Source: Candidatus Zymogenus saltonus
GTDB taxonomy: Bacteria; Desulfobacterota; Zymogenia; Zymogenales; Zymogenaceae
Length of the DNA: 64,000 nt
Direction: 5' to 3'
NCBI GenBank assembly: GCA_016929395.1
Contig: JAFGIX010000086.1
Coordinates: 40,819 to 104,818, forward strand
In this document: one piece after another, positions 51,624 through 64,000 of the stretch
Numbering within the stretch: position 1 is the stretch's first letter
How the letters are laid out: the number at the start of each line of letters is the position of its first letter
The notes under the pieces: model-generated
What the model was told of the DNA's origin: nothing
Seen by the model: only the letters and a program-made list of their open reading frames with translations
The model's database searches: none
Position numbers and translations under genes: made by a program

Positions 51624-53567
51624 ATGAACGGTTCAAATTCCCCCCGCATCCTCTATTTAGGTAAAGATGAAAGCCTTTCGAGTTACATAAAAGAAGAGAC
51701 CGCCCGCAAAGAATATCTCTTTGAAAGCGCAAAAAATAGGGATGAGGGCCTATCGACAATAATAGGAAATGTCTTCGACATCGTTGCCGTGGATCACGAT
51801 CTTGAAAACGAGGAGAGCCTCAATCTGATAGAAGACCTCGCCTTCGGTGGAATCCTCCCCCCCACGATCTACTTCGCGCGCAAGGGTACAGAGAGCGCCA
51901 TCGCCCGTGTATTGGAGTTGGGAGTAGAAAACTACATCGTAAAGGACCGCAAACGAAAATATTTAGAGCTTGTTCCGGCCTTAATTGACAATATCTTAAA
52001 AAGGGGAAAGCCCGTAAAGGAAGAGACCCGATCCACGACAAAACCCGCAGACATAAAAAAAGAGGGAGTAAGCCGTATTGAAAAGGAGAGGGAAAGCCGG
52101 GCGGAAAAAGAGAAAACGGCTATTTTGGACAGCCTCTCCGAGATGGTGATGTTCATCGGAAAAGACATGAACGTCATCTGGGCGAATAATGCCGTAGCCG
52201 AGTTCGCAAAAATCACCCAGAGGGAGCTCGTGGGCCACCGTTGTTATCATGTCATATTGAACAACCTCGATCCGTGTGTCGGCTGCCCCATTGTGGAGGC
52301 TCAAAAAACACGCAAATCAAAAGAGGCCGAGATAATCTCCGAAGACGGAAAGGCTTGGTTCGTAAGGGCCTATCCTGTATTGGACGACAACGGCGAGGTT
52401 GAGGGAGTGGTAGAGGTAAAGACGGATATAACGGCACAAAAGGAGTGGGAGGGTATGTTAAAGCAGGCCTCCGGTGAATGGAGGACCACATTTGACTCCA
52501 TAACGGACATGGTCGCGATCATAGGCAAAGACTACAAGTTTATAAAGGTAAACATGGCACTCGCCGATTCCTTCAACATGAAGCCTAAAGAGATTGTCGG
52601 GAAGAAATGTTACGAGCTTCTTCAGGGACATGACGCCCCATGTCAGGACTGTCCCCACGAAGAGGCCATCTTAAACGGAAAGGGGGTACAGATAGACAAA
52701 TACGACGATCGCGTTAAAGCCTATCTTCATATATCCGTGTCCCCTATTTTTGACGATGGTGGCGTTGTAATGGGCTCCGCAATAATCTTTAAAGACATCA
52801 CTCAACAAAAAGAGGCCGAGGAAAGGCTGAACCAATATTCAAAGCACTTCAAACAGATGGTCGGGGGATTGACGAAGGAGCTTAAAGAAGCTCCCGGACT
52901 TCTCGTCGACAAGACGAGAAACACCGTTCTGAGGCAGTTTGCGAGGGGTGTCGGCAACGAGCTTCGCGGGCCATTGGAGATAATTTCGGAAAAGGTATTT
53001 TCCTTGAAAAAGAAAATCTCAAAAGACGATGAGGCCGCCCAGAAGGTCTTGGAGGTGATCACGTCCGAGATAAAAAAGACCGAACAGATAATGCTCCTGC
53101 TCCTCTACTTCGCCAGACCAAAGACACCCGACAAAAAGGAAGTAGAGGTGCATAAACTGGTGCAAAGGGTCCTTGAAAAATACCCGCCTTCGGGTAATGT
53201 CAAGGTAATTACCGATGTTTCGGATAAATTGCCCCGGGTGTTCGTCGATCCCCTTCAAACGGGTCAGGTCATCAACAACCTGATCATAAATGCGGACCAA
53301 TCCATGCCCAACGGGGGGGAACTTAAAATAATCGCCAAATCCAATGACAACGCTATATTGCTATCCATCTCGGATAACGGCCCCGGCATACCTAAAAAGG
53401 ATCTCAAAAAGCTCTTCGATCCCCTCTCCACGACCAGAGCCGGAAAGATGGGGATAGGCCTTGCAATCTCTAAAAATCTCATCGAGTCAAACGGCGGCAG
53501 TATTTCGGTGAGCAGCAAGGAGGGAGAGTACAGCACCTTCACGATTGTTCTGCCCACGAAGGAGTGA
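51624..53567 (+). CDS. Hybrid histidine kinase: REC-like, two Cys-motif PAS domains, HisKA-like, HATPase
   Basis: 647 aa. PAS1 has CYHVILNNLDPCVGCP and PAS2 has CYELLQGHDAPCQDCPH. N-box NLIINADQSMP, DNGPGI, MGIGLAISK. Confidence 0.85.
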   Translation: MNGSNSPRILYLGKDESLSSYIKEETARKEYLFESAKNRDEGLSTIIGNVFDIVAVDHDLENEESLNLIEDLAFGGILPPTIYFARKGTESAIARVLELGVENYIVKDRKRKYLELVPALIDNILKRGKPVKEETRSTTKPADIKKEGVSRIEKERESRAEKEKTAILDSLSEMVMFIGKDMNVIWANNAVAEFAKITQRELVGHRCYHVILNNLDPCVGCPIVEAQKTRKSKEAEIISEDGKAWFVRAYPVLDDNGEVEGVVEVKTDITAQKEWEGMLKQASGEWRTTFDSITDMVAIIGKDYKFIKVNMALADSFNMKPKEIVGKKCYELLQGHDAPCQDCPHEEAILNGKGVQIDKYDDRVKAYLHISVSPIFDDGGVVMGSAIIFKDITQQKEAEERLNQYSKHFKQMVGGLTKELKEAPGLLVDKTRNTVLRQFARGVGNELRGPLEIISEKVFSLKKKISKDDEAAQKVLEVITSEIKKTEQIMLLLLYFARPKTPDKKEVEVHKLVQRVLEKYPPSGNVKVITDVSDKLPRVFVDPLQTGQVINNLIINADQSMPNGGELKIIAKSNDNAILLSISDNGPGIPKKDLKKLFDPLSTTRAGKMGIGLAISKNLIESNGGSISVSSKEGEYSTFTIVLPTKE

Positions 53568-54027
53568 AGTCGAAAAGACCAAGCTTTAAATACTTTTTTT
53601 GAAGGATGATAATCAGGCCGTGATATACTTGGAGGAGACCGGGAAAACAGCCAAAAGAAAATCTTCTTTTGCCAAATTTCAAATGTGATTGAGACATTGC
53701 CGAAAGACCCGGCTTTTAACAGCGTATCTCTGAAAGGGAAGATGCCCATTCGCCGGACTCTGCTGGAAAGGATGGATTCTTAAAAATATTTCTTGGACGA
53801 CACACAATAATGTGATAGAATTCGGCCCCAATGTCGATTGCGGAAAGAACCGATTTGCCCCCTTTGGGACGGAGTTGATCCCTATCAATGATTTGCGAAA
53901 ATAGAAAGGTATAGTATGGCACGAAGAACACGCCATCATCTCGATAAAACAGCGGCCCTCACTCGGGCAGGTTTAGTCTAAAACGGAGGATTTTTTAGAG
54001 AGTAATAAAAAACTGTAGCAATCAAAC

Positions 54028-54103
<76 letters not shown>

Positions 54104-54209
54104 ATGATTTCAAGTACTTACACGTTTTCACTTTTTTACAAAAGCTCCTTGATACCAAAATGATACCAAATAAGGCGCAAAAAAAACGCTAAAAAATCAC
54201 CGTTTTTAG

Positions 54210-55361
54210 TCAAGTAGTCATGCCCTTTTTAAAGGGGATAACAACACCCGTCTCCTTCTGACCCCTAAATCCAACTAAATTGACCGTTTCATCTAAAAAT
54301 CTGGCCGTTACGTTTAAATAAACCTGTGTCGTCTTAATGTCGCTATGTCCTAAAAGTCGCCGTAACGATTCAAGATCAGCCCCGTTCATTAAAAGATGAA
54401 CGGCAAACGTCCGCCGGAGGGAATGCCAACCCCCCTTATCCTCCACTCCGGCCCGTCTTGTAACAATCCTGAAATCTCGATGAAGATTGTTTTTTCGGGG
54501 TTTTCCGTATTTGTTAGCGAAAACCCAAGGCGAAAGTTCAGATTTAGGCCGTAAACGGGAAAGCACTTCAAAGGCCGCCGCATTGAGCTTTATTCTCCTG
54601 ATTTCGTGGTCTTTAGGTTCAAAGGAAAATGTCTCTCCTCCAAAATCCATTGAATATCCCTGAACAAGAATAAATCCACCGTCAAGGTTGACATCGCCCC
54701 ATCGAAGATGCGTCAACTCGCCCAAACGCAAGCCCGTGTTTAATCCAAGGATAACCATGTCGTAAATGTGCATATTTTGAGCCGATGCAAGTATCCTTGA
54801 AATTTCCCCCTCTTCCCAAAAAGTGGGCGATTTTGAGGTTTTTGCCCTTATCAACCTCGGCCTCTCCACAACACCTTTAGGAATTATCTTCAAGCTCTCC
54901 AAAACTGTGATCATTTTCCCTATTCCTGTTAATTTTAGATCCACCGTCCGGGGGGCGAGGCCCTTGTCAAAAAGCCATTCCTTGTATTGATCGTAAATCT
55001 CCGGCGAGAGACTTTTGATTTTCTTTTCGGAAATAAACTCTTGGAAAACCTTCATCGCCTCCGCATGATATTCATACGTCCGTGGCGAATTAGAGTGAAT
55101 CTTTGACCATCTCAAAAACCTTTCGATATAATCGTTCAGGTTCGTTTCAAAAAGAACGTCAAGCCGTCCCGTCTCTTGGAGCTTTGATTTCGCTTTGTAA
55201 AATTCGTCTTTAGCCTCCGATAAAACCGTTGTCTTGACCGCCCATCTTTTACGCTTCCGGTTTTTCAAATTCATGTTTTCAGCTTCTAAATAATAACCTC
55301 CTCTGTACTCGATAAGACGGAGCTTATACCCTGAAAAAACAACCTTTTCAATAGTTGCCAT
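54210..55361 (-). CDS. int: Tyrosine recombinase (phage integrase family)
   Basis: 383 aa. Catalytic-domain blocks LNTGLRLGEL (R), HSLRRTFA (H-x-x-R), LLGHSDIKTTQVY (H..Y). Confidence 0.92.
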   Translation of the reverse strand: MATIEKVVFSGYKLRLIEYRGGYYLEAENMNLKNRKRKRWAVKTTVLSEAKDEFYKAKSKLQETGRLDVLFETNLNDYIERFLRWSKIHSNSPRTYEYHAEAMKVFQEFISEKKIKSLSPEIYDQYKEWLFDKGLAPRTVDLKLTGIGKMITVLESLKIIPKGVVERPRLIRAKTSKSPTFWEEGEISRILASAQNMHIYDMVILGLNTGLRLGELTHLRWGDVNLDGGFILVQGYSMDFGGETFSFEPKDHEIRRIKLNAAAFEVLSRLRPKSELSPWVFANKYGKPRKNNLHRDFRIVTRRAGVEDKGGWHSLRRTFAVHLLMNGADLESLRRLLGHSDIKTTQVYLNVTARFLDETVNLVGFRGQKETGVVIPFKKGMTT

Positions 55362-55568
55362 ACTTTATCACCTCCTTTCTAAAAAACCTTCTTCCTTTTA
55401 TCTACAAAACGATACTCTGTTAACCTCATTAGAAAAATGATCTGTTTACTTTTTCTGCTTTCTTATGTGAAGGCAAGGCAGACGACATATTTGGCTGTTT
55501 TCCCGAAAGAAGCTCCTCGATGGTTACATATATTCCGTTGTGCTTCATCATTTTAGTATTTCGTTCTA

Positions 55569-56375
55569 TTACTCTAATGATACATTTACTACGTGAAAAG
55601 TCATATTATAGCCCACACTAACTGCTTCAATTACTCCTATAAAAACGATATTTTGTCCTTTACTTAACGAAAAATAGTTTAAAGTTGTGTTTTCAGGAAG
55701 ATAGATTTTGGTTATGCTATTTGCATTTTTTAATTCTATCAATACTCCTGATGAAGGTAATTCCTTTTTAGGTGTTGTAAAAGTTCCAGTTAAACCTTCA
55801 GTAAAACCTTCCATAAAAGAACCGACAATAGATTTATTATACTTCTCCACGGATACTACTTCACCTATACCTATGCAATTTTTCCCAACATACATATTTG
55901 CATATTGTTCTTTTTGCACGTTAGTCAAAGAGCCCGTTTTTATTTCAGGCAAAGAGGAAATATGAACATAATCAGGGTGTTGTTTTTTCAAATCACGATA
56001 TTTAGAGTAAATACTAAAGTTGAAGTAGTAATATGCATATGCAGTAACAGCAATTAAAGAAATAATTAGAATCAAAAATAACGTTGTTTTGTTTATATCT
56101 TCAGCCTTATTTTTTGGAGTGATTGTTTTTTCTTTTTCTGTATCAATTCTTTTTTCAGGAGTAGACTCCAATTTTGAGTAATCACCCTTAATGTAGTCCC
56201 ATGTTGTCATTTTAGAATTACTTTGATTTTCTTGATCAATCGGCAAAGGCTTCGTCTTTTTATTAACTACAAAAGATGTTTTGCATTTAGGGCAAGATAC
56301 TTTTTTCCCATCATCTGGTATTAGACTATCAGCTATATTACCTTCAAATCCACAATTATTGCATTTAACTTTCAT
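55569..56375 (-). CDS. MJ0042-type zinc-ribbon / single TM / C-terminal OB-fold-like (tRNA_anti-like) membrane protein
   Basis: 268 aa. MKVKCNNCGFEGNI...VSCPKCKTSFVV zinc ribbon. TM segment TLFLILIISLIAVTAYAYYYF. The C-terminal pattern YANMYVGKNCIGIGEVVSV...SLSKGQNIVFIGVI resembles tRNA_anti-like OB domains, from recall. RBS GAGAGG. Confidence 0.6.
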   Translation of the reverse strand: MKVKCNNCGFEGNIADSLIPDDGKKVSCPKCKTSFVVNKKTKPLPIDQENQSNSKMTTWDYIKGDYSKLESTPEKRIDTEKEKTITPKNKAEDINKTTLFLILIISLIAVTAYAYYYFNFSIYSKYRDLKKQHPDYVHISSLPEIKTGSLTNVQKEQYANMYVGKNCIGIGEVVSVEKYNKSIVGSFMEGFTEGLTGTFTTPKKELPSSGVLIELKNANSITKIYLPENTTLNYFSLSKGQNIVFIGVIEAVSVGYNMTFHVVNVSLE

Positions 56376-56541
56376 AATAACCTCTCAATCGAAATCCAAA
56401 TACTATTTCGATAATTAAAGTCACAATTTAGGGAAAAAACTTTCACCGTTCCTAAATAATGAGGAAGATGAAGAATAATTATGCAAGATTAATGGGACAG
56501 ACTTATCAAACAGATTTATTTGAAGATTAATCGAATAATTC

Positions 56542-57036
56542 TTAAATAAGTTTCAGCTTTTCTAAAGGAATTTTTGGATCAATAGCGGTTTGTTCAATAA
56601 TTCGTTTGGTATCGTCAGAAATTTCTGGTCGCTTCAATGCCTTTTTACTTAATTTCTTTATTGAATCGCATTTAGCAGAACATAGCTTTGCTACGTACCT
56701 AAACCCGTTTTTTGGATCCTCTATTTTCCTTAAGAGTTCATTTTTGACAATACTCTCACAATGTCTAACATCACAAAACGATATTCGTTCTTCAAGATGT
56801 CCACCAACCTTATCTTCCCAATCACTTTGTTTTATTTTTACAGTTAAACATTTCTTGCAAGCATCATAATCAGTAGTAAGGACGTGGAAAAAATAATTTT
56901 CTAAAAAACTATGTCCAGCAAGTTTATATTTTGGTTTTTTTATGCGAGTTGATTTTTCAATTGATTTAGTATCGTAATAAACATTATTCCGAAAAATCGG
57001 CAATAACCCTGTATGTTGGAAAAGCTTACTTTTCAC
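56542..57036 (-). CDS. Unknown 164-aa Cys/His-rich protein, candidate toxin/effector partner of the Panacea-domain gene
   Basis: GTG start immediately after the upstream TGA (TGAGTG), so translation is coupled. Contains CKKC...GGHLEE...CDVRHC...C..C. I see no family match. Confidence 0.55.
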   Translation of the reverse strand: MKSKLFQHTGLLPIFRNNVYYDTKSIEKSTRIKKPKYKLAGHSFLENYFFHVLTTDYDACKKCLTVKIKQSDWEDKVGGHLEERISFCDVRHCESIVKNELLRKIEDPKNGFRYVAKLCSAKCDSIKKLSKKALKRPEISDDTKRIIEQTAIDPKIPLEKLKLI

Positions 57037-57507
57037 TCATTTGGCCGATAAATCTAATACTTGATTTAGACCTTTCTTATTATTTTGTGTAGCTCCTATT
57101 TTTTTCATGGGTTTTGTATTATAAGCTATCTCAACAAGAGCCTTTGCCCCATATCCTGAAAGCGCCTCTAATACTTCATCTAAAATAGCCTGATCTTCTT
57201 CATCTAATTCATCAAAAGAAACGTTCTGTTTATCTTTAAATCTATAGACTATATATTCATCACCTCTTGTAGTATAGTTTGGTTCTTCGACAATGCTATT
57301 CTCCGATAATAATTCTTGAATATAATCATAGATATTTCTATCAAATGGCCCGTGTTTATATCTCAAATATTCAAAATCTGACATTTGCAGATCACGCCTT
57401 TCCATTGATACTAAATCGCTTATATAGGCGAGTTTCATTAAACCAGTAATTGTTGGTGATTGATGGTTTTTTATCAAATAAGCAAGTAGTTGCTTGGTCT
57501 TTTTCAT
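57037..57507 (-). CDS. Panacea (DUF4065, SocA/GepA-like) domain protein, candidate antitoxin
   Basis: Start at ATG 57507 (MKKTKQLLAYL). ITGLMKLAYISDLVSMERRDLQMSDFEYLRYKHGPFDRNIYDYI matches the KLxKLxY...Y..w.yGP....Y signature of DUF4065, from recall. Confidence 0.65.
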   Translation of the reverse strand: MKKTKQLLAYLIKNHQSPTITGLMKLAYISDLVSMERRDLQMSDFEYLRYKHGPFDRNIYDYIQELLSENSIVEEPNYTTRGDEYIVYRFKDKQNVSFDELDEEDQAILDEVLEALSGYGAKALVEIAYNTKPMKKIGATQNNKKGLNQVLDLSAK

Positions 57508-57544
57508 ATAGCAATAACCCCATTTATTAGAATATTCCAATAAA

Positions 57545-57575
57545 ATTATACCATATCTGCATAAGAAAATGTCAA
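57545..57575 (-). promoter_or_regulatory. Near-consensus sigma-70 promoter of the Panacea two-gene unit
   Basis: The minus strand reads TTGACA (57575-57570), a 19-nt spacer ending in TGG, then TATAAT (57550-57545). It lies about 38 nt upstream of ATG 57507. Confidence 0.6.
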
Positions 57576-57651
57576 GAAATATTTTAAATAGTTTATTCAT
57601 GTATTTTATTCATCCCACTACCACTAACTGGTACATTCCATACAGATATAG

Positions 57652-57686
57652 ACTAAAAATTGACCGGGGCCATTACAACCCCGGCC
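57652..57686 (-). terminator. Rho-independent terminator closing the packaging operon
   Basis: The minus strand reads CCGGGG-9 nt loop-CCCCGG followed by TCAATTTTTAG, just after the stop at 57694. Confidence 0.5.
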
Positions 57687-57693
57687 TTGGTTT

Positions 57694-58107
57694 TTACTCT
57701 TCTTTGGTTTCAGGATCGCCCTGATACTTTTCACGCTCTTCAAAGGGCACTTGGCCCCATTTTGAATAAACCTCTTTTAGCCGCCTTCCTTTTTCAATTC
57801 CGGCCTTGACACTTTCGTCATGCTCTCCGCCTATCGAGGCCGAGATAGTTTTAGGCCGATATTCCCTAAAAGCCTTATGGAAAGCCTCCTCTTCCTTCTT
57901 TTTGCGCCGGGCCTCAACGTCAATCCCAAAACGCTTTCGCATGACCTCCTCCGGTGTCATGTTGTGTGTTTCGCTCATTTTTGCAATTACGTTTAAAACG
58001 TATTCTTTGTCAAGCTCCTTAAATCGACACACAATATCGACCGCCTCCATTAACTCCGCCTCTCGCTGCTCTTTGATTTTCTCCAATGCCGTTTCAATTT
58101 CGCCCAT
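57694..58107 (-). CDS. Hypothetical charged/coiled-coil protein
   Basis: Start at ATG 58107 (MGEIETALEKIKEQ), one nt after the upstream stop. 137 aa. No recognisable domain. Confidence 0.5.
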   Translation of the reverse strand: MGEIETALEKIKEQREAELMEAVDIVCRFKELDKEYVLNVIAKMSETHNMTPEEVMRKRFGIDVEARRKKKEEEAFHKAFREYRPKTISASIGGEHDESVKAGIEKGRRLKEVYSKWGQVPFEEREKYQGDPETKEE

Positions 58108-58108
58108 G

Positions 58109-58570
58109 TTATTTTCCCTCCATTTTCTCGATTTCAACTTCGGCTGATACAGGGCCGTCCAAAGCGAAATCTTTTTCAGAAATTTTCATCTCATATTTTG
58201 TCTTTTCGTATTCGATTCGATACCGCCCGTCCATGCTAATCGGTATCATGTCCGAGATAAAAATATGTTCATGTCCGAAAGTGCCTCCGGTTGCTTTCAA
58301 ATACCACCGCCTATCAGCCCCCAAAAGTTCGGGCCTGCAACAAATCTTCAATCGCACATTCCGCAAAGCCGGATTTTCTTGAAAAATAAAACTCTCCCCT
58401 TCGAGATCGCCTCGACCGACCAGAAACGCCTTCTCCTCTTTTGCCGGGTTTTCCTTTTTTTCATTTTCCATTTTTTTGTCCTCTTCTATTTCGTTAAGTT
58501 TTCTCTGGGCCAATTCTTTTGAAATCAACCCAACCCTTAAATCGTTCAAAATATATTCTCGCTTTTCCAT
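58109..58570 (-). CDS. Hypothetical protein occupying the position immediately after terL
   Basis: Start at ATG 58570 (MEKREYILNDL), one nt after the terL stop. 153 aa. N-terminal coiled coil plus a beta-rich C-terminal half. Neither portal-like in size nor in motifs. Confidence 0.5.
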   Translation of the reverse strand: MEKREYILNDLRVGLISKELAQRKLNEIEEDKKMENEKKENPAKEEKAFLVGRGDLEGESFIFQENPALRNVRLKICCRPELLGADRRWYLKATGGTFGHEHIFISDMIPISMDGRYRIEYEKTKYEMKISEKDFALDGPVSAEVEIEKMEGK

Positions 58571-58571
58571 T

Positions 58572-59951
58572 TTAAAATAGGGCCACGCTTTGAAAATCTT
58601 TTTGTGTATAAATTCGTGTCGGCTCTCCCGATAAAGTAAAAACGCCCATGCCGAGCGCAATCACAAAATCATCATGCATGTTTGATTTATGATCGATGCG
58701 GAGGCCGTAACTCGTTTCAATAATCATTACTGTTAGCAATTCTTTGATTAATTCGTCATGTTTGAAAATCTTTATCGTTCGGTCTTTGAAAACCCCAAGA
58801 AGGGCCTCGGTCATTTTTGTGAGATTTCCGCCAGAAAAAACAAACTCCTCAATCTTCACATTACGGGCCTTTAATCGCTGTATCAGGCCGATGCTTTGCC
58901 AAGGGTCAATCACAAGTCTTGATTGTCGGAAGTTGCGCCACAAATGAATTAAATGACTTTCAACATCGGCAATGTTTACCTCGGCCCCACGCTTCCCCTC
59001 AAAGCTCTTGACATGATCAAGAATTATCCGCCCCGATTTCCAATTACGGTGAACGACACTAATCACGGTTCGATCTGAACGGAGGCCAAGATCACATGAA
59101 ATAGTAAACCGTTCACCCTGTCCACTATCCCGATTTCTCAATTCCGGGTCAATCGATGCGTCAACGTCTTCCTTTGTCAAAAAGTTATCGCTCCCAACTG
59201 TCCATTGATTTCTGTGGAGGCGTTTAAACATAAACTCCGGCAATCTCTTTTTCTCACTTTCGAGGTATTGGTCGTCAACCCAACTTGCTAAATTCTCATG
59301 CGACCAATAAAAGTACATTTTCGGGTCTTTGCCCTCTTTTCCCCGTTCGTAATAATCAAAAAGCGGATTTCCCGGAAACGGCTGATTTCCCGCATAAGTC
59401 ACGACAAGCGTCAAGGGATTTCGCCTCGCCGGAGAGGGAGCCACCGCCTCCAATAGCTTGTAATCCTGAAAACCCCACATTTCATCAATCACGATTGCCG
59501 AGCAGTCATAGCCGTGTGCGCTCACCGAGTCGGCACTAATGACCTGATACCAGCCTCCATTCCGGGCCTCTATGCGATCTCTCTTTATCACAACCTCCTG
59601 TCGCAGTACTGGCGAGAGTTCAAAAGACCGTTTTACAAAGTCGAATATCCGCCGGGCCTGTTCAAGGTCGTTTGCAAGCGAGATGATTTCAGGATATTGC
59701 TCACCATCTGCCAACAAAAGATATGCGATGCATAAGGCTGCGAGAGTGCTTTTCCCATTCTTTTTCGGCACCGAGAAAACGGCGAGGTCGTATTTTCTCA
59801 ATCCGTCCGGGGTGAGATCATAAAACACGGGCCGGATAAAGTTGTCGATCTGCCATTGTTCAAGTCTAATGGGCGATACGCTGTTGTCTTTATTTCGCAC
59901 ATAGAAAAACTTTTCGGCAAACTCTATGAAATCAATCTTTTTCGGTTTCAT
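58572..59951 (-). CDS. terL: Phage terminase large subunit
   Basis: 459 aa. Walker A-like VPKKNGKST, Walker B AIVIDEMWG. The C-terminal RNaseH-like nuclease half has acidic residues (ISCDLG.., ..MHDDFV). Confidence 0.8.
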   Translation of the reverse strand: MKPKKIDFIEFAEKFFYVRNKDNSVSPIRLEQWQIDNFIRPVFYDLTPDGLRKYDLAVFSVPKKNGKSTLAALCIAYLLLADGEQYPEIISLANDLEQARRIFDFVKRSFELSPVLRQEVVIKRDRIEARNGGWYQVISADSVSAHGYDCSAIVIDEMWGFQDYKLLEAVAPSPARRNPLTLVVTYAGNQPFPGNPLFDYYERGKEGKDPKMYFYWSHENLASWVDDQYLESEKKRLPEFMFKRLHRNQWTVGSDNFLTKEDVDASIDPELRNRDSGQGERFTISCDLGLRSDRTVISVVHRNWKSGRIILDHVKSFEGKRGAEVNIADVESHLIHLWRNFRQSRLVIDPWQSIGLIQRLKARNVKIEEFVFSGGNLTKMTEALLGVFKDRTIKIFKHDELIKELLTVMIIETSYGLRIDHKSNMHDDFVIALGMGVFTLSGEPTRIYTQKDFQSVALF

Positions 59952-60459
59952 GCTTTACCTCGTTTTCGTTTAGGTATTGCTCAAAGGGAGTCGCCCGCTC
60001 AAATGACCTCGGTTCATGTAGTTTTAGTAATGTCAAAGTTAATCGGATGCTGTTATGACAAGCCAGATAAAATGCGGATAGTGCGGATTTGACCTTTAAG
60101 TCTCCCCCCTCGGCCTTAACGAAAGGCCCTCCGTTCTCTCGAATCCAAAAATCAATAAGTCTCGTGTACCCTGATAATTGGATAACTTGATCTATTAAAA
60201 GCGATTGACCCTCCGTCATCATGGCCTGACCGCCGAGATCAGCGACAAGGCCCGCCCGAAGGCTGTCAAGCTCCCCCTCAATCTCCGTTTTCCAAGGCAA
60301 GTCCGGCACCTCTCCCGTTTGTAGATAAGCATTTCCCCCGTGTTTAAGGCTTTGCTTATTGCCTTCCTTGAATTGTGAGGGCGTTTTATTCCCTTCCTTA
60401 AAAGACGTTTCATTTGGGCCTGAAAACTGGCCCTTTTTATTTCTATCTGTCATGTTCAC
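59932..60459 (-). CDS. Possible terminase small subunit (by position and basic Gly/Lys-rich N-terminus)
   Basis: 175 aa. The stop overlaps the terL start by 20 nt. The N-terminus KKGQFSGPNETSFKEGNKTPSQFKEGNK resembles DUF5681-type TerS N-termini, a weak recollection. Confidence 0.4.
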   Translation of the reverse strand: MNMTDRNKKGQFSGPNETSFKEGNKTPSQFKEGNKQSLKHGGNAYLQTGEVPDLPWKTEIEGELDSLRAGLVADLGGQAMMTEGQSLLIDQVIQLSGYTRLIDFWIRENGGPFVKAEGGDLKVKSALSAFYLACHNSIRLTLTLLKLHEPRSFERATPFEQYLNENEVKHETEKD

Positions 60460-60709
60460 CCTCCAATGCGATAATCAGCAAAATTAAATACCCTGTAAGA
60501 TCAAGTAAAGTGTCCTCTTTGAAGTTCTTTTCCCCACTTGAAGCGATGCGGGAAAGTTTGTCGTCAATCCTTACCTTTAGGGCCTCAATCGGTGGAGCCT
60601 TTGAGAATATCCCGACCGGATTAAAAACCGAGTTTCCGTAATCCCAGTTTTTCCTTATCAGGAGATCGCTGATCTCTTCACATTTCGCCTTGATCTTATC
60701 CTCGGTCAT
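60443..60709 (-). CDS. DUF1599 / MazG-like all-alpha small protein
   Basis: Start at ATG 60709 after GGGGGGAAA. KNWDYGNS...ALKVRIDDKLSRI....EDTLLDLTGYLILL fits the K..DYG / R..DK..R / D...D..gY pattern, from recall. Confidence 0.45.
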   Translation of the reverse strand: MTEDKIKAKCEEISDLLIRKNWDYGNSVFNPVGIFSKAPPIEALKVRIDDKLSRIASSGEKNFKEDTLLDLTGYLILLIIALEGEHDR

Positions 60710-60926
60710 TTTCCCCCCATTCAATAAGACTTTTGCGCTCACTCTCCGGCACATTGAGAAGATCAAACGCCTTGTGAATCGTTACAATCTCACAACTCCC
60801 GCCATTCAGGGCGTTCAAGAATGCACTCCGGGAAATACCCGCCTTTTCAAAGTCATATTCCTTGACCTTCATTTTCCTGTAATAATTTATTTCAACCTTT
60901 AAATGAGGCTTCAAACTCATTGACAA
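60696..60926 (-). CDS. Small putative HTH protein
   Basis: 76 aa or shorter. EKAGISRSAFLNALNGG looks like an HTH recognition segment. The stop overlaps the next gene's start. Confidence 0.4.
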   Translation of the reverse strand: MSMSLKPHLKVEINYYRKMKVKEYDFEKAGISRSAFLNALNGGSCEIVTIHKAFDLLNVPESERKSLIEWGENDRG

Positions 60927-61190
60927 CCCCCCAAAAATGGCGAATAACTTATCTCTGGTAAAGTATTCAACACCCCAACCCCCCGATTTCCCAACGCTTT
61001 TCCCTTAAAAGAGTGAGATGATACCAACTTGATACAAAATGACCTATTTTCCCCTAAAATATCAACTCTTGATAATGCTTCTTTTAGGGGCAATATTCCT
61101 AAATTACTGTAATTATTGACTATTCCCATTTAAACCCCGCCGATCTTGAAGCATTTTAGTAATTTTTACTAATAAGTTTAGATTCCTTCT

Positions 61191-61347
61191 ATGGTGCAAC
61201 CATAGTAGTTGCCCAACTATACCAACTAAAGCAACTAACACCATTTTCCTTAATAATATCAATAAGTTACTTGGTTGTCCTATTTCAACCTTTTTGGTTG
61301 CCTTGGTTGGGTTGGTTGCCTTGGTTGGGTTGGTTGGTTTAGTTGCC
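61191..61347. promoter_or_regulatory. Putative replication origin: opposed (T)AGTTG(C/G)/GGTTG iterons around an AT-rich core
   Basis: The perfect 18-nt unit ggttgccttggttgggtt occurs twice in tandem (61296-61313, 61314-61331). tagttgcc occurs at 61205 and 61340. Reverse-oriented caact/ccaact/gcaact lie at 61214-61236. AT-rich core at 61241-61270. The region begins 18 nt after the rep stop. Confidence 0.5.
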
Positions 61348-61364
61348 ATAATATATATATTCCC

Positions 61365-62360
61365 CTAAAGGATAGAATACTTAACACCGCCTCGACCTTT
61401 ACCGCTTTTAAGGATTGTCCCCCGGTTTACGAGATCGCTTAATATTTTATATGCGCTTCCTTTATTAATTCCAAGGGCATCGCCTATATCTGTAATTCCA
61501 CAAGCCCCCGCATCCTGTAAAAATTCTATAATTTCGCCTTGTCGTCCGCTCAATTCGTAAAGACTTGCCTCGCCTTCACAACTCCAAAGCCCGGTCTCCC
61601 AATCGATATTTAATTTTAGGCTTTGCTCCTCTATATCCCTTCCTGTTAAAATCAGCTTTGCCCCCACCTTCCCGGCCTGTCTGTAAAGCCCCCAAAGACA
61701 ATCACCTACAGCACCCTTTCCTGTAGACCCCAATATGTCAGATACAGCATCAGGGTCGGCAAGTGCCTTCTTATGATGATCGATCAGGAGAATGGAAGTA
61801 TTTAGATTTTGAGCTACTTCTTGGAGTGAGCCGATTGCGTTGGTAACTGCATTAACGTCATTCTGATCAACCCCAATGGCCCTTGACAGCGTATCCACCA
61901 CAACAAAGCGATATTGCCAACGTTCGATCTGCTTTGCCAATAACTGCCCCCCGCCTTTCCCAAGATCACCAAAACGCTCTCTAAACAATTTTGATGTTAT
62001 AAAATCTGCGGGCAATCCCGGCGACCATCCTTGTTTCTGCATTCTGTCTTTTAGACGGCGAGGGTGATCTTCGAGGGCAATAATTAGAACACGTCCAGGG
62101 TCAACCTTTTTTCCGAAAACAACTCCCCCAGAAGCAACCGCCTGTCCAAGCTGAAGGCCCATCCAACTTTTTCCTGTTTTTGGTCGACCCCCCAGAATCG
62201 CAACTCCGACCGACAACATCTCCGGTATAATCCAAGTTGGTGCAGGAAATTCTGTATTTAGAATGTCATAAGTGGAGAGGAGGCCGGGAAGGCGGTCAGT
62301 ACTGTTGCCCTCTTCTCGGATTGCAATCTGTTCCTGTTCTTCAAGCTCCTGTCTATCCAT
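61365..62360 (-). CDS. RecA-like (AAA_25/RepA-type) replication ATPase with C-terminal winged HTH
   Basis: Start at ATG 62360 (MDRQELEEQ). Walker A GGRPKTGKSW, Walker B RFVVVDTLS. C-terminus IIEFLQDAGACGITDIGDALGINKGSAYKILSDLVNRG. Confidence 0.7.
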   Translation of the reverse strand: MDRQELEEQEQIAIREEGNSTDRLPGLLSTYDILNTEFPAPTWIIPEMLSVGVAILGGRPKTGKSWMGLQLGQAVASGGVVFGKKVDPGRVLIIALEDHPRRLKDRMQKQGWSPGLPADFITSKLFRERFGDLGKGGGQLLAKQIERWQYRFVVVDTLSRAIGVDQNDVNAVTNAIGSLQEVAQNLNTSILLIDHHKKALADPDAVSDILGSTGKGAVGDCLWGLYRQAGKVGAKLILTGRDIEEQSLKLNIDWETGLWSCEGEASLYELSGRQGEIIEFLQDAGACGITDIGDALGINKGSAYKILSDLVNRGTILKSGKGRGGVKYSIL

Positions 62361-62910
62361 CAATAGCCCTCTCGTACAATTCGAGTTTTGCTTCCCAATC
62401 ATGCCCTAAAAGAATTTCGTAATGATATTCAAAAATTTCCCGGCTCTCCATCAAGAATCTACTCCACTCAAAGCCGAGCGATTTTGGGGTGATCTTGTCG
62501 ATCATAATGTCAAGCTTGTACAACAACCCAGCCAACTTTAAAGTTTCCGACTTTACCCATTGCTTAAACATTTTTTCCCGTTCTCGCCTTTGTCGCTTCT
62601 CTTCAATCTCCCGCCTTATTTCCGGGGCGATTGGCTTCCCGATTATATTAAGCCCCGCCTTTTGCGCTAAAAATGACAAGGCCGACTTTGTGTCCAGCTT
62701 GTAAAAGCATTCGCAAAAATCAAAAACATCTCCGCCTCGATTACACGAAAAACACCACCACCGCCCTTGGTCGGGATAGATTTTGAGGCTCGGCGTTCGA
62801 TCTTCATGGAGAAAACACTTACAAAAACCCCCCCGATTAATCGCCAGCCCCGCCTCTTCCATAAGTGAGGGGAGGTCAGTCAAGGATTTTACCAACTCGA
62901 AATTAGTCAT
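62353..62910 (-). CDS. CHC2 zinc-finger primase-like protein without TOPRIM domain
   Basis: Start at ATG 62910 (MTNFELV). CFLHEDRTPSLKIYPDQGRWWCFSCNRGGDVFDF is the DnaG-type CHC2 finger. It is only 185 aa, and the rest is helical. Confidence 0.7.
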   Translation of the reverse strand: MTNFELVKSLTDLPSLMEEAGLAINRGGFCKCFLHEDRTPSLKIYPDQGRWWCFSCNRGGDVFDFCECFYKLDTKSALSFLAQKAGLNIIGKPIAPEIRREIEEKRQRREREKMFKQWVKSETLKLAGLLYKLDIMIDKITPKSLGFEWSRFLMESREIFEYHYEILLGHDWEAKLELYERAIDG

Positions 62911-63109
62911 TTTTGGTTTCCGAAAAAAGTTCCGAGACGGATTTTCCAAGCACCGAGGCGATCCGCTCTTTTTCATCTTCCGAGGGAGTCCGCCATCCGC
63001 AAACGATTTCACTCAACCGAGATGGTATCATTTCGATCTGGGAGGCAACCCAATATTGCGTGATCCCCTGTCTTAAGATTTCTGTTTTTAAGGCAATATT
63101 TTTTGACAT
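62903..63109 (-). CDS. XRE/Cro-type HTH regulator
   Basis: 68 aa. LRQGITQYWVASQIEMIPSRLSEIVCG. The stop overlaps the primase-like start by 8 nt. Confidence 0.7.
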   Translation of the reverse strand: MSKNIALKTEILRQGITQYWVASQIEMIPSRLSEIVCGWRTPSEDEKERIASVLGKSVSELFSETKND

Positions 63110-63261
63110 TTCCTACACTCCAAAAAATTCTTATTTTCTTTAATTATATAAGATAATTTTCTTAATTCAAGAGTATTTATATGCATATATACACTTATTT
63201 AGACGCTTTTTATGGGAAATGCGAAAAAGGTGTCAAAATCTAATGGGTCAAAGGGCGGAAA

Positions 63262-63888
63262 TTAAAAGTCTTTTTTGAGTCTCGAATGGGTTTGCCCGCA
63301 CCACCGACTACAATGTTCTGTCGTTTTATTCGTGGATAAAAAGAGGTTATTGCATGATTTTCTCCCTCTAACACGAAAAGCGCATCGCCCCAAAAGATGA
63401 AAATCTCTTGATTTTAAAAAATCGCTCAATAAAAGAAATGCCTTATGTTCTTTTGTTCGGGGTTCTCTATTACCAAAACGGAGAGTTACGCCGGGGTTTA
63501 AAGTGAAATCACCAATTTTAGAGAAATATGTATGTAATTCTGGTTTTATCGATGCGTTTAAACTCTCAATTCTATAATTTATTTTTTTGACGGCATCTTT
63601 CGCCTTTGAAAACATATCGTCTCTTTTATGAATATCTATACTTACCTTGAAATAATAATCACGAATTTCGATTAATTCATAAAGAATGTCAAATATCTCT
63701 TTTTTCAATTTTATATCTTTAATATTTTTATTCAAATAATTAACAAAAAGGATTGTCGATGGATTTAAGGTTCTTTCTGTTTTATCGCTCATTATCACAA
63801 TTTTGGGTATTTCACGTTGTTTTTCCTCAAGCTCTCTTAATATCTTTTTTTCATTAATCCGTTTATCAATTTTTATAGTCTGTTTCAT
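63262..63888 (-). CDS. Hypothetical protein with C-terminal CGNR-like zinc finger
   Basis: Start at ATG 63888 after AAGGAGGG. The C-terminus LGRCAFRVRGRKSCNNLFLSTNKTTEHCSRWCGQTHSRLKK resembles the C..C..lF.d.s....rWCs..CGNR pattern, from recall. Confidence 0.45.
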   Translation of the reverse strand: MKQTIKIDKRINEKKILRELEEKQREIPKIVIMSDKTERTLNPSTILFVNYLNKNIKDIKLKKEIFDILYELIEIRDYYFKVSIDIHKRDDMFSKAKDAVKKINYRIESLNASIKPELHTYFSKIGDFTLNPGVTLRFGNREPRTKEHKAFLLLSDFLKSRDFHLLGRCAFRVRGRKSCNNLFLSTNKTTEHCSRWCGQTHSRLKKDF

Positions 63889-64000
63889 GTCCACACCCTC
63901 CTTTAAAATAATTATTCCACAATACAAGATATAGTCAAAGATAAAAAAAAGGGGGCCTGAAACGGCCCCCAAAGTGTTTAATCCAATACCGGAGGCTCTT

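Follow-up and report, generated by a model that had tools for sequence, protein, structure and literature searches.

A PanA-PanT-type gene pair with a sequence-cryptic, predicted MazF-fold partner on an integrated element of Candidatus Zymogenus saltonus

Introduction

Antitoxins that carry a Panacea domain and the toxins encoded beside them were defined as PanA and PanT by Kurata et al. 2022 (PMC8832971), who described 88 toxin clusters paired with Panacea. These include PanTs with a PemK domain as well as clusters T5, T6 and T25, which had no hit in the Conserved Domain Database (CDD) and turned out to be EndoA/PemK/MazF-like by HHpred, cluster T5 matching EndoA at 99.5% (PMC8832971). In pairs from Pseudomonas moraviensis and Bifidobacterium ruminantium, PanT was toxic, PanA neutralised it, and the toxin acted specifically by inhibiting protein synthesis; a Chryseobacterium 'MazF' partner of PanA was toxic as well (PMC8832971). 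Ernits et al. 2023 (PMC10440598) listed MazF/PemK as one of the folds met most often in the toxin-antitoxin network, reported that Panacea-only antitoxins neutralise directly, and proposed a sensor role for Panacea. Here we analysed a stretch of 64,000 nucleotides (nt) from Candidatus Zymogenus saltonus (contig JAFGIX010000086.1, positions 40,819 to 104,818; hereafter the 64-kb window), in which a Panacea gene (gene 1, panA) is followed directly by a gene of cryptic sequence (gene 2, panT).

We consider it likely that this locus is a type II PanA-PanT cassette, in which a sequence-cryptic toxin of the MazF fold, probably an endoribonuclease, would be neutralised directly by PanA, the pair being carried as mobile, AT-rich cargo. 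As in the MazF-like PanATs of Kurata et al., the Panacea gene lies directly 5' of the toxin gene with an overlap or a near-zero gap, and by analogy with those pairs the predicted outcome is inhibition of translation. Gene 2 also resembles clusters T5, T6 and T25 in that some of these lack a CDD hit and that the likeness to MazF emerges only from remote or structural methods. It differs in size, its family being ~165 amino acids (aa) long compared to ~110-120 aa for MazF, with an extra insert (~98-112) and a C-terminal tail in gene 2. It differs further in that the family is invisible to profile-profile comparison with a small MazF alignment, unlike T5 when compared with EndoA.

A preliminary description of the window had taken gene 2 to be a novel type of Panacea partner. 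This view has to be given up, as the combination of Panacea with CDD-less MazF-like toxins had already been validated (Kurata et al. 2022, PMC8832971). Because Kurata et al. 2022 and Ernits et al. 2023 described it, the system type is known already, as are the gene order and the likely mechanism (2022-2023). What is probably new is the toxin sequence family of gene 2.

Results

panA and panT form a compact two-gene unit

The unit and the signals around it are laid out as follows:

57652-57686, minus strand: intrinsic terminator, which ends an upstream 147-aa gene and marks the 5' boundary of the unit
57545-57575, minus strand: predicted promoter, sigma-70-type TTGACA-19 nt-TATAAT with a TGn extended -10 (TGGTATAAT)
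57523-57544, no strand: palindrome of 22 nt, TTTATTGGAAT / ATTCTAATAAA, located after the -10 box and before the panA start codon
57037-57507, minus strand: panA (gene 1), 156 aa, Panacea (DUF4065) domain alone, predicted antitoxin
56542-57036, minus strand: panT (gene 2), 164 aa, predicted toxin with a MazF/PemK-like fold

We observed that the GTG start codon of panT abuts the TGA stop codon of panA, with 0 nt between them (...AAATGAGTGAAA). The terminator stem (57686-57662) has 11 pairs, 7 of them G-C, with a 3-nt loop, and is followed by the T-run AATTTTTAGT. The perfect TTGACA-19-TATAAT arrangement occurs nowhere else in the window, where shuffled sequences led us to expect 0.02 instances. 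The TGA-GTG junction, the upstream terminator and this unique TTGACA-19-TATAAT sequence bear out the preliminary view of the pair as an autonomous, tightly coupled unit. The GC content of the pair is 31.7%, compared to 40% for the element in which it lies and 53% for the host flank.

An alternative version of gene 1 is an open reading frame (ORF) of 187 aa. We regard the 156-aa form as the right one, because the longer form would take in the promoter and because the homologues of gene 1 begin at the equivalent of M32 of the 187-aa ORF. From its sequence, TTGACA-19-TATAAT is plausible as the panAT promoter, and TTGACA...TATAAT-like sites were also seen just 5' of the Panacea gene in several homologous loci. 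It stays short of proof since its 19-nt spacer is beyond the optimal length and since a generic promoter scan, confined to spacers of 16-18 nt, gave no surplus of promoter-like sites in the AT-rich region. The palindrome, with 11-nt arms that are 91% complementary, may be a candidate operator or a hairpin in the 5' untranslated region. Its significance is uncertain, because it is not kept upstream of panA in the homologous loci compared.

Gene 1 is a Panacea-only protein

The earlier identification of gene 1 as a Panacea protein was confirmed with the PF13274 (SocA_Panacea) hidden Markov model, which matched it at E = 9.3e-15 with a score of 56 bits, the gathering cutoff being 25.7. The match covers residues 23-132 of the protein and positions 1-110 of the 113 in the profile. 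Gene 1 also matches phrog_1281, and its PADLOC matches (PDC-M19A, DarG) are weak. It carries no additional domain and is accordingly a Panacea-only PanA.

The Pfam family of gene 1 takes the name SocA_Panacea from SocA, a member of the same family that belongs to the type VI system SocA-SocB of Caulobacter. There, SocB binds the DnaN clamp and inhibits replication, and SocA serves as a ClpXP adaptor (PMC8832971), whereas gene 2 is predicted to have a MazF fold. By analogy with the described Panacea-only antitoxins, gene 1 is likely to neutralise its partner by direct binding rather than by a SocA-type mechanism, and the lack of an extra domain in PanA makes direct binding probable.

A Panacea gene lies directly 5' of every gene 2 homologue fetched

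We fetched 28 loci with a gene 2 homologue, of which ~20 are distinct, from a protein index, GTDB genomes and JGI/ENA metagenomes. A Panacea gene was found directly 5' of the homologue and on the same strand in 28/28 loci, with the qualification that in locus L019 the contig end shows only the C-terminus of PanA. The pairing holds for the most distant toxins tested, at 22-24% identity. The PanA orthologues that sit 5' of every gene 2 homologue are 38-74% identical, PanA being more conserved here than PanT. At the panA-panT junction the gap is 0 nt in the window, where Kurata et al. 2022 allow <=100 nt for PanATs, and in eight further loci it lies between -11 and +3 nt. The constant position of its homologues just 3' of a Panacea gene makes gene 2 credible as a toxin partner, and the preliminary proposal of such a role gains support from this co-occurrence.

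The identities of PanA and PanT co-vary between loci (Spearman 0.80 over 36 locus pairs), which suggests that the pair is inherited as a unit. In two loci from metagenomes, panA is intact and the toxin gene beside it is damaged. The first of these, L019 (155-532), has a premature stop in panT at ~aa 126; in the second, L028 (846-1293), homology to panT stops at ~aa 70 and the ORF runs on into unrelated sequence, either by truncation or by fusion. Read from the sequence, a damaged panT beside an intact panA is consistent with selection against the toxin, and an assembly error is possible. By eye, the unrelated extension in L028 resembles the C-terminus of a restriction-modification enzyme.

Gene 2 belongs to a family with no model in Pfam, NCBIfam, PHROGs or PADLOC

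Gene 2 has no significant match in Pfam, PHROGs, PADLOC or NCBIfam, and profiles of its family gave chance-level matches alone against the sequences of the PDB (best E = 0.11). A word-indexed search of 5.8 billion proteins returned 5 relatives and later 10. By comparing a profile exhaustively with 1.84 billion cluster representatives we found 217 related clusters at E <= 1e-3, and 177 at E <= 1e-10. With 217 related clusters, gene 2 is a real gene and not an orphan. Its relatives are mostly 157-180 aa long among the 150 clusters listed, and the 143 full-length members that we collected have no Pfam family in common.

All family members whose source was checked come from metagenomes or metagenome-assembled genomes (MAGs), the NCBI genome of the window being the one exception. 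Among the hosts are an Omnitrophota MAG and Candidatus Uhrbacteria (PIR48039.1), and relatives that have been given a name are called 'hypothetical protein' and nothing else. In view of these sources and names, the family is unlikely to overlap with clusters T5 and T6. No relatives were found in IMG/VR viral contigs, and tblastn of gene 2 gave no match in 50,697 phage records or 72,556 plasmid records.

To describe conservation in the family we used an alignment of the 143 sequences, to which all conservation figures refer:

K36: 100% of members
K104: 99%
F50: 98%
D22 and S25: 97% each
K38: 95%
F112: 94%
N110: 92%
E27: 90%
K34 and D89: 81% each
T54: 80%

Every conserved family residue is present in the window protein, which therefore looks intact. 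The preliminary description had drawn attention to its Cys/His motifs. These are indeed present (CKKC, GGHLEE, CDVRHC and C..C) but are no feature of the family, in which no Cys or His column is conserved. In the columns of C63, H80, H92, C93 and C123 most members have other residues, and C60 is found in 66% of members.

Gene 2 is predicted to adopt a MazF/PemK-like fold

Based on the 143-sequence alignment, AlphaFold2 gave a model of gene 2 with a predicted local distance difference test score (pLDDT) of 91.3 and a predicted TM-score of 0.85, the pLDDT of the five models ranging from 89.6 to 91.3. A run with a 6-sequence alignment reached a pLDDT of 39 and was discarded. The model has six main strands (residues 18-26, 33-44, 47-54, 65-69, 85-97 and 113-118) and helices at 98-106, 120-134 and 141-151.

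A Foldseek search of the PDB with this model returned 35 matches at E <= 1e-3. The top 50 PDB matches are all MazF/PemK/EndoA proteins (E 1.1e-5 to 3e-3, probability 1.00), with target-normalised TM-scores of 0.56-0.78 over ~120-138 aligned columns at 7-16% identity, and CcdB is absent from them. Among the PDB matches are M. tuberculosis MazF-mt3 and MazF-mt1, S. aureus MazF, B. subtilis EndoA/YdcE and B. anthracis MoxT; the best matches in BFVD are phage entries named 'PemK-like protein' and 'Endoribonuclease'. The preliminary description of gene 2 as unrecognisable thus holds for the sequence databases and no longer holds for structure, where Foldseek on the AlphaFold model points to a MazF/PemK fold.

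Like MazF/PemK/EndoA (PF02452; for example B. subtilis EndoA, 4MDX, and M. tuberculosis MazF-mt3, 5HKC), the model shows an SH3-like barrel with a C-terminal helix. To this, gene 2 adds a family-specific insert at ~aa 98-112, which holds the conserved K104, D107, N110 and F112, and a C-terminal helical tail at ~aa 135-164. We therefore predict, on the strength of the model, that gene 2 encodes a MazF-fold protein with an added insert and an added C-terminal helical tail. The gyrase poisons of the CcdB type have the CcdB/MazF superfamily fold in common with the model, and their antitoxins are of a different type from Panacea. Partner type also separates the window pair from MazF/PemK, since gene 2 is paired with a Panacea protein and MazF/PemK with MazE/PemI (AbrB or ribbon-helix-helix).

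A tentative mapping of the MazF active site

Gene 2 departs from MazF in having no PF02452 match, a structural-alignment identity of 7-16%, Lys in place of an invariant Arg, and extra segments. For an alignment with MazF we used six MazF/Kid sequences, which were checked against PDB chains (~2.1 bits per residue, full length), because a homologue search with B. subtilis EndoA gave only relatives that were >= 94% identical. A forced global alignment of the gene 2 family with this set was uninformative. Greedy local alignment with hhalign, itself statistically insignificant, gave a colinear stretch of 106 columns, from 14-136 of the family to 3-113 of B. subtilis MazF (BsMazF).

This insignificant alignment pairs K34-P35 with R25-P26, N42 with N36 and T54 with T48 of BsMazF, where N42 is the family consensus and the window protein has H. 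The MazF set has six invariant positions, and three of them are matched in this weak alignment (R25-P26, N36 and T48). The K34 column (K 81%, R 6%) falls on R25 and the T54 column (T 80%, S 6%) on T48. The catalytic pair is R25/T48 in BsMazF (R29/T52 in EcMazF), the Arg opening strand 2 and the Thr closing strand 3. By this weak mapping gene 2 would resemble MazF/PemK/EndoA in that strand 2 begins with a basic residue and strand 3 ends with a Thr, and the mapping fits the strand order of the model. From the sequence comparison, K34 and T54 are probably at the places of the MazF catalytic Arg/Thr pair. Since K34, K36 and K38 alternate along strand 2, they would form a basic stripe on one face, and such a stripe fits RNA binding.

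Proposed mechanism and alternative explanations

We propose that a single promoter would give rise to a bicistronic mRNA from which PanA is translated first. Termination-reinitiation at the TGA-GTG junction would then yield PanT and so tie the synthesis of the toxin to that of its antitoxin. With its predicted SH3-like barrel, PanT would most likely act as a ribosome-independent endoribonuclease and shut down translation. The places of the MazF catalytic Arg and Thr would probably be taken by the K34/K36/K38 stripe on strand 2 and by T54, with which strand 3 ends. PanA would probably bind PanT directly through the Panacea fold and neutralise it in the resulting complex. As for biological role, the cassette, as AT-rich, horizontally mobile cargo, would serve element stabilisation, abortive-infection defence, or both.

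Several observations weigh against a PanA-PanT cassette with a MazF-type endoribonuclease. The fold assignment stands on a predicted, not a solved, structure, and the CcdB gyrase poisons have the same fold as MazF. PF02452 (PemK_toxin) matched neither gene 2 at E <= 1 nor any of the 143 family members at E <= 0.01, and hhalign of the family against the small MazF alignment returned a probability of 0.4%. Judged by these profile comparisons, gene 2 is not a member of the MazF family at the sequence level. The position proposed as catalytic is Lys in 81% of members, compared to an Arg that is invariant in MazF, and the most conserved residues (K36, K104, N110, F112, D22 and S25) have no known counterpart in MazF. 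Moreover, some predicted PanA-'MazF' pairs, such as that of Flavobacterium xanthum, were non-toxic in E. coli (PMC8832971).

With several predicted PanAT pairs harmless in E. coli, one of them annotated as MazF, the pair could also be a conserved two-gene module whose gene 2 is non-toxic, for example an RNA-binding or regulatory accessory to the Panacea protein. The stronger conservation of PanA than of PanT, unusual for classical toxin-antitoxin pairs, points the same way. We nevertheless think this unlikely, given the predicted toxin fold, the strict antitoxin-first, overlapping architecture, the patchy, mobile and AT-rich distribution, and the two loci in which panT is truncated beside an intact panA. 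Quite unlikely, in our judgement, is a CcdB/MazF barrel without RNase activity, directed at another target (such as DNA gyrase) or acting by binding instead of cleavage. The superfamily is generally known to include non-RNase toxins, the catalytic Arg of MazF is not kept as Arg, and the family has a conserved insert of its own (K104, N110, F112) together with the C-terminal tail. In the HHpred lists of Dataset S1 of Kurata et al., CcdB also comes just behind MazF (PMC8832971). However, 0 of the 50 best PDB matches of the model is CcdB, RNA binding and cleavage would agree with the conserved basic stripe and with a Thr at MazF catalytic positions, and the validated MazF-like PanTs inhibit translation. 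The suggestion in the preliminary description that gene 2 might be a zinc-dependent or His-Me-finger nuclease drew on the CKKC, GGHLEE, CDVRHC and C..C motifs of the window protein; we rejected it as extremely improbable on grounds of conservation and fold, as none of these Cys/His positions is conserved and the confident model predicts a MazF-type beta-barrel, not a beta-beta-alpha-metal finger.

A further alternative bears on biological role, and a type II toxin-antitoxin mechanism leaves room for it. The pair might chiefly be an abortive-infection or anti-phage sensor-effector, in which PanA keeps PanT inactive until a phage cue makes it release the toxin; this would shield the host, or the element, from competing phages. 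We see this as a possibility worth taking seriously, though not a favoured one. It is encouraged by the position of the pair in the cargo region of an integrase/primase/terminase element adjoining a tRNA gene, and by homologues that lie beside an MmeI-type restriction-modification gene, beside an AAA_15/AAA_21 ATPase with insertion sequence (IS) elements, and in other integrative elements. Against it speak the PADLOC results, weak for PanA and nil for PanT, the lack of a match in 50,697 phage records or in IMG/VR viral contigs, and the copies that sit between housekeeping genes.

Returning to the PanA-PanT cassette with a predicted MazF-fold toxin, its description supplies a fold and a probable function for at least 217 clusters that had no Pfam, NCBIfam, PHROG or PADLOC model, and extends the Panacea-MazF partnership into uncultivated lineages. 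The family also offers a test case for divergence of the MazF scaffold, with Lys where MazF has its catalytic Arg, and with an insert and a tail of its own. The understanding of toxin-antitoxin systems as such is unchanged by gene 2. A farther-reaching version, which we hold to be unlikely, would make the family a distinct branch of the MazF superfamily, its Lys-based site, insert and tail directing it to a new RNA target or to an activity unlike that of MazF. Panacea would then serve as a phage-sensing switch, and the pair would represent a new abortive-infection module in uncultivated lineages (candidate phyla radiation bacteria, Omnitrophota) and their mobile elements.

Genomic contexts and the carrier element

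In the window, as in each of the eight further loci compared, the panAT pair is richer in AT than the DNA around it, and its flanking genes are wholly different from locus to locus. The following contexts were seen:

L001, 11347-12444: panAT beside an AAA_15/AAA_21 ATPase with IS elements
Element of the integrase/AlpA/DnaB type
Serine-recombinase element with a DNA methylase
L014, 1-1674: panAT beside an MmeI-type restriction-modification gene
Contig with a phage-type amidase
Position between argS and ileS
L016, 7005-8159: panAT beside an ORF resembling a DNA cytosine methyltransferase (by eye), itself next to a transposase-like ORF

Homologues of panAT were often found beside defence-type or mobile genes (L001, L014, L016), a hint of residency in defence islands.

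In the window, the pair had been proposed to be cargo, and its GC content of 31.7% inside an integrase/primase/terminase element adjoining tRNA-Arg upholds that proposal. The other features of the element are:

54028-54103: tRNA-Arg(tct)
54210-55361: tyrosine integrase
55569-56375, minus strand: Zn-ribbon protein, possibly of the membrane, 268 aa
57694-58660, minus strand: two overlapping ORFs of 183 and 147 aa, Glu/Lys-rich, between TerL and the panAT terminator
58572-59951: TerL, 459 aa
On the same side of panAT as TerL: ORF with a weak TerS-like match (E = 0.003)
Beyond TerL and the TerS-like ORF: AAA_25 helicase with a C-terminal helix-turn-helix, and CHC2 primase

The 183- and 147-aa ORFs gave no significant match in Pfam, PHROGs, PADLOC or NCBIfam. 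Capsid, portal and tail genes were not found in the ~10 kb of the element that is visible (54028-64000), and judging by its gene content the integrated element is plausibly satellite-like. A search within the window found no att repeat for the element, whose right end lies beyond position 64000, and an Rfam scan of 53000-64000 gave the tRNA as its sole significant match.

The 55569-56375 protein has an N-terminal zinc ribbon of the MJ0042 type (PF13717, E = 4e-12), an uncharacterised C-terminal domain and, by eye, a hydrophobic, possibly membrane-spanning stretch at ~aa 97-118. Its gene lies in the same ~30% GC block as panAT. We considered a three-gene system that would include it and rejected this, because other loci do not keep this gene next to the pair; it is probably cargo in its own right.

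Just 3' of the AAA_25 helicase gene, at 61294-61338, we observed five tandem 9-nt units (TTGGTTGSS). From their sequence these repeats appear iteron-like and may mark the replication origin of the element.

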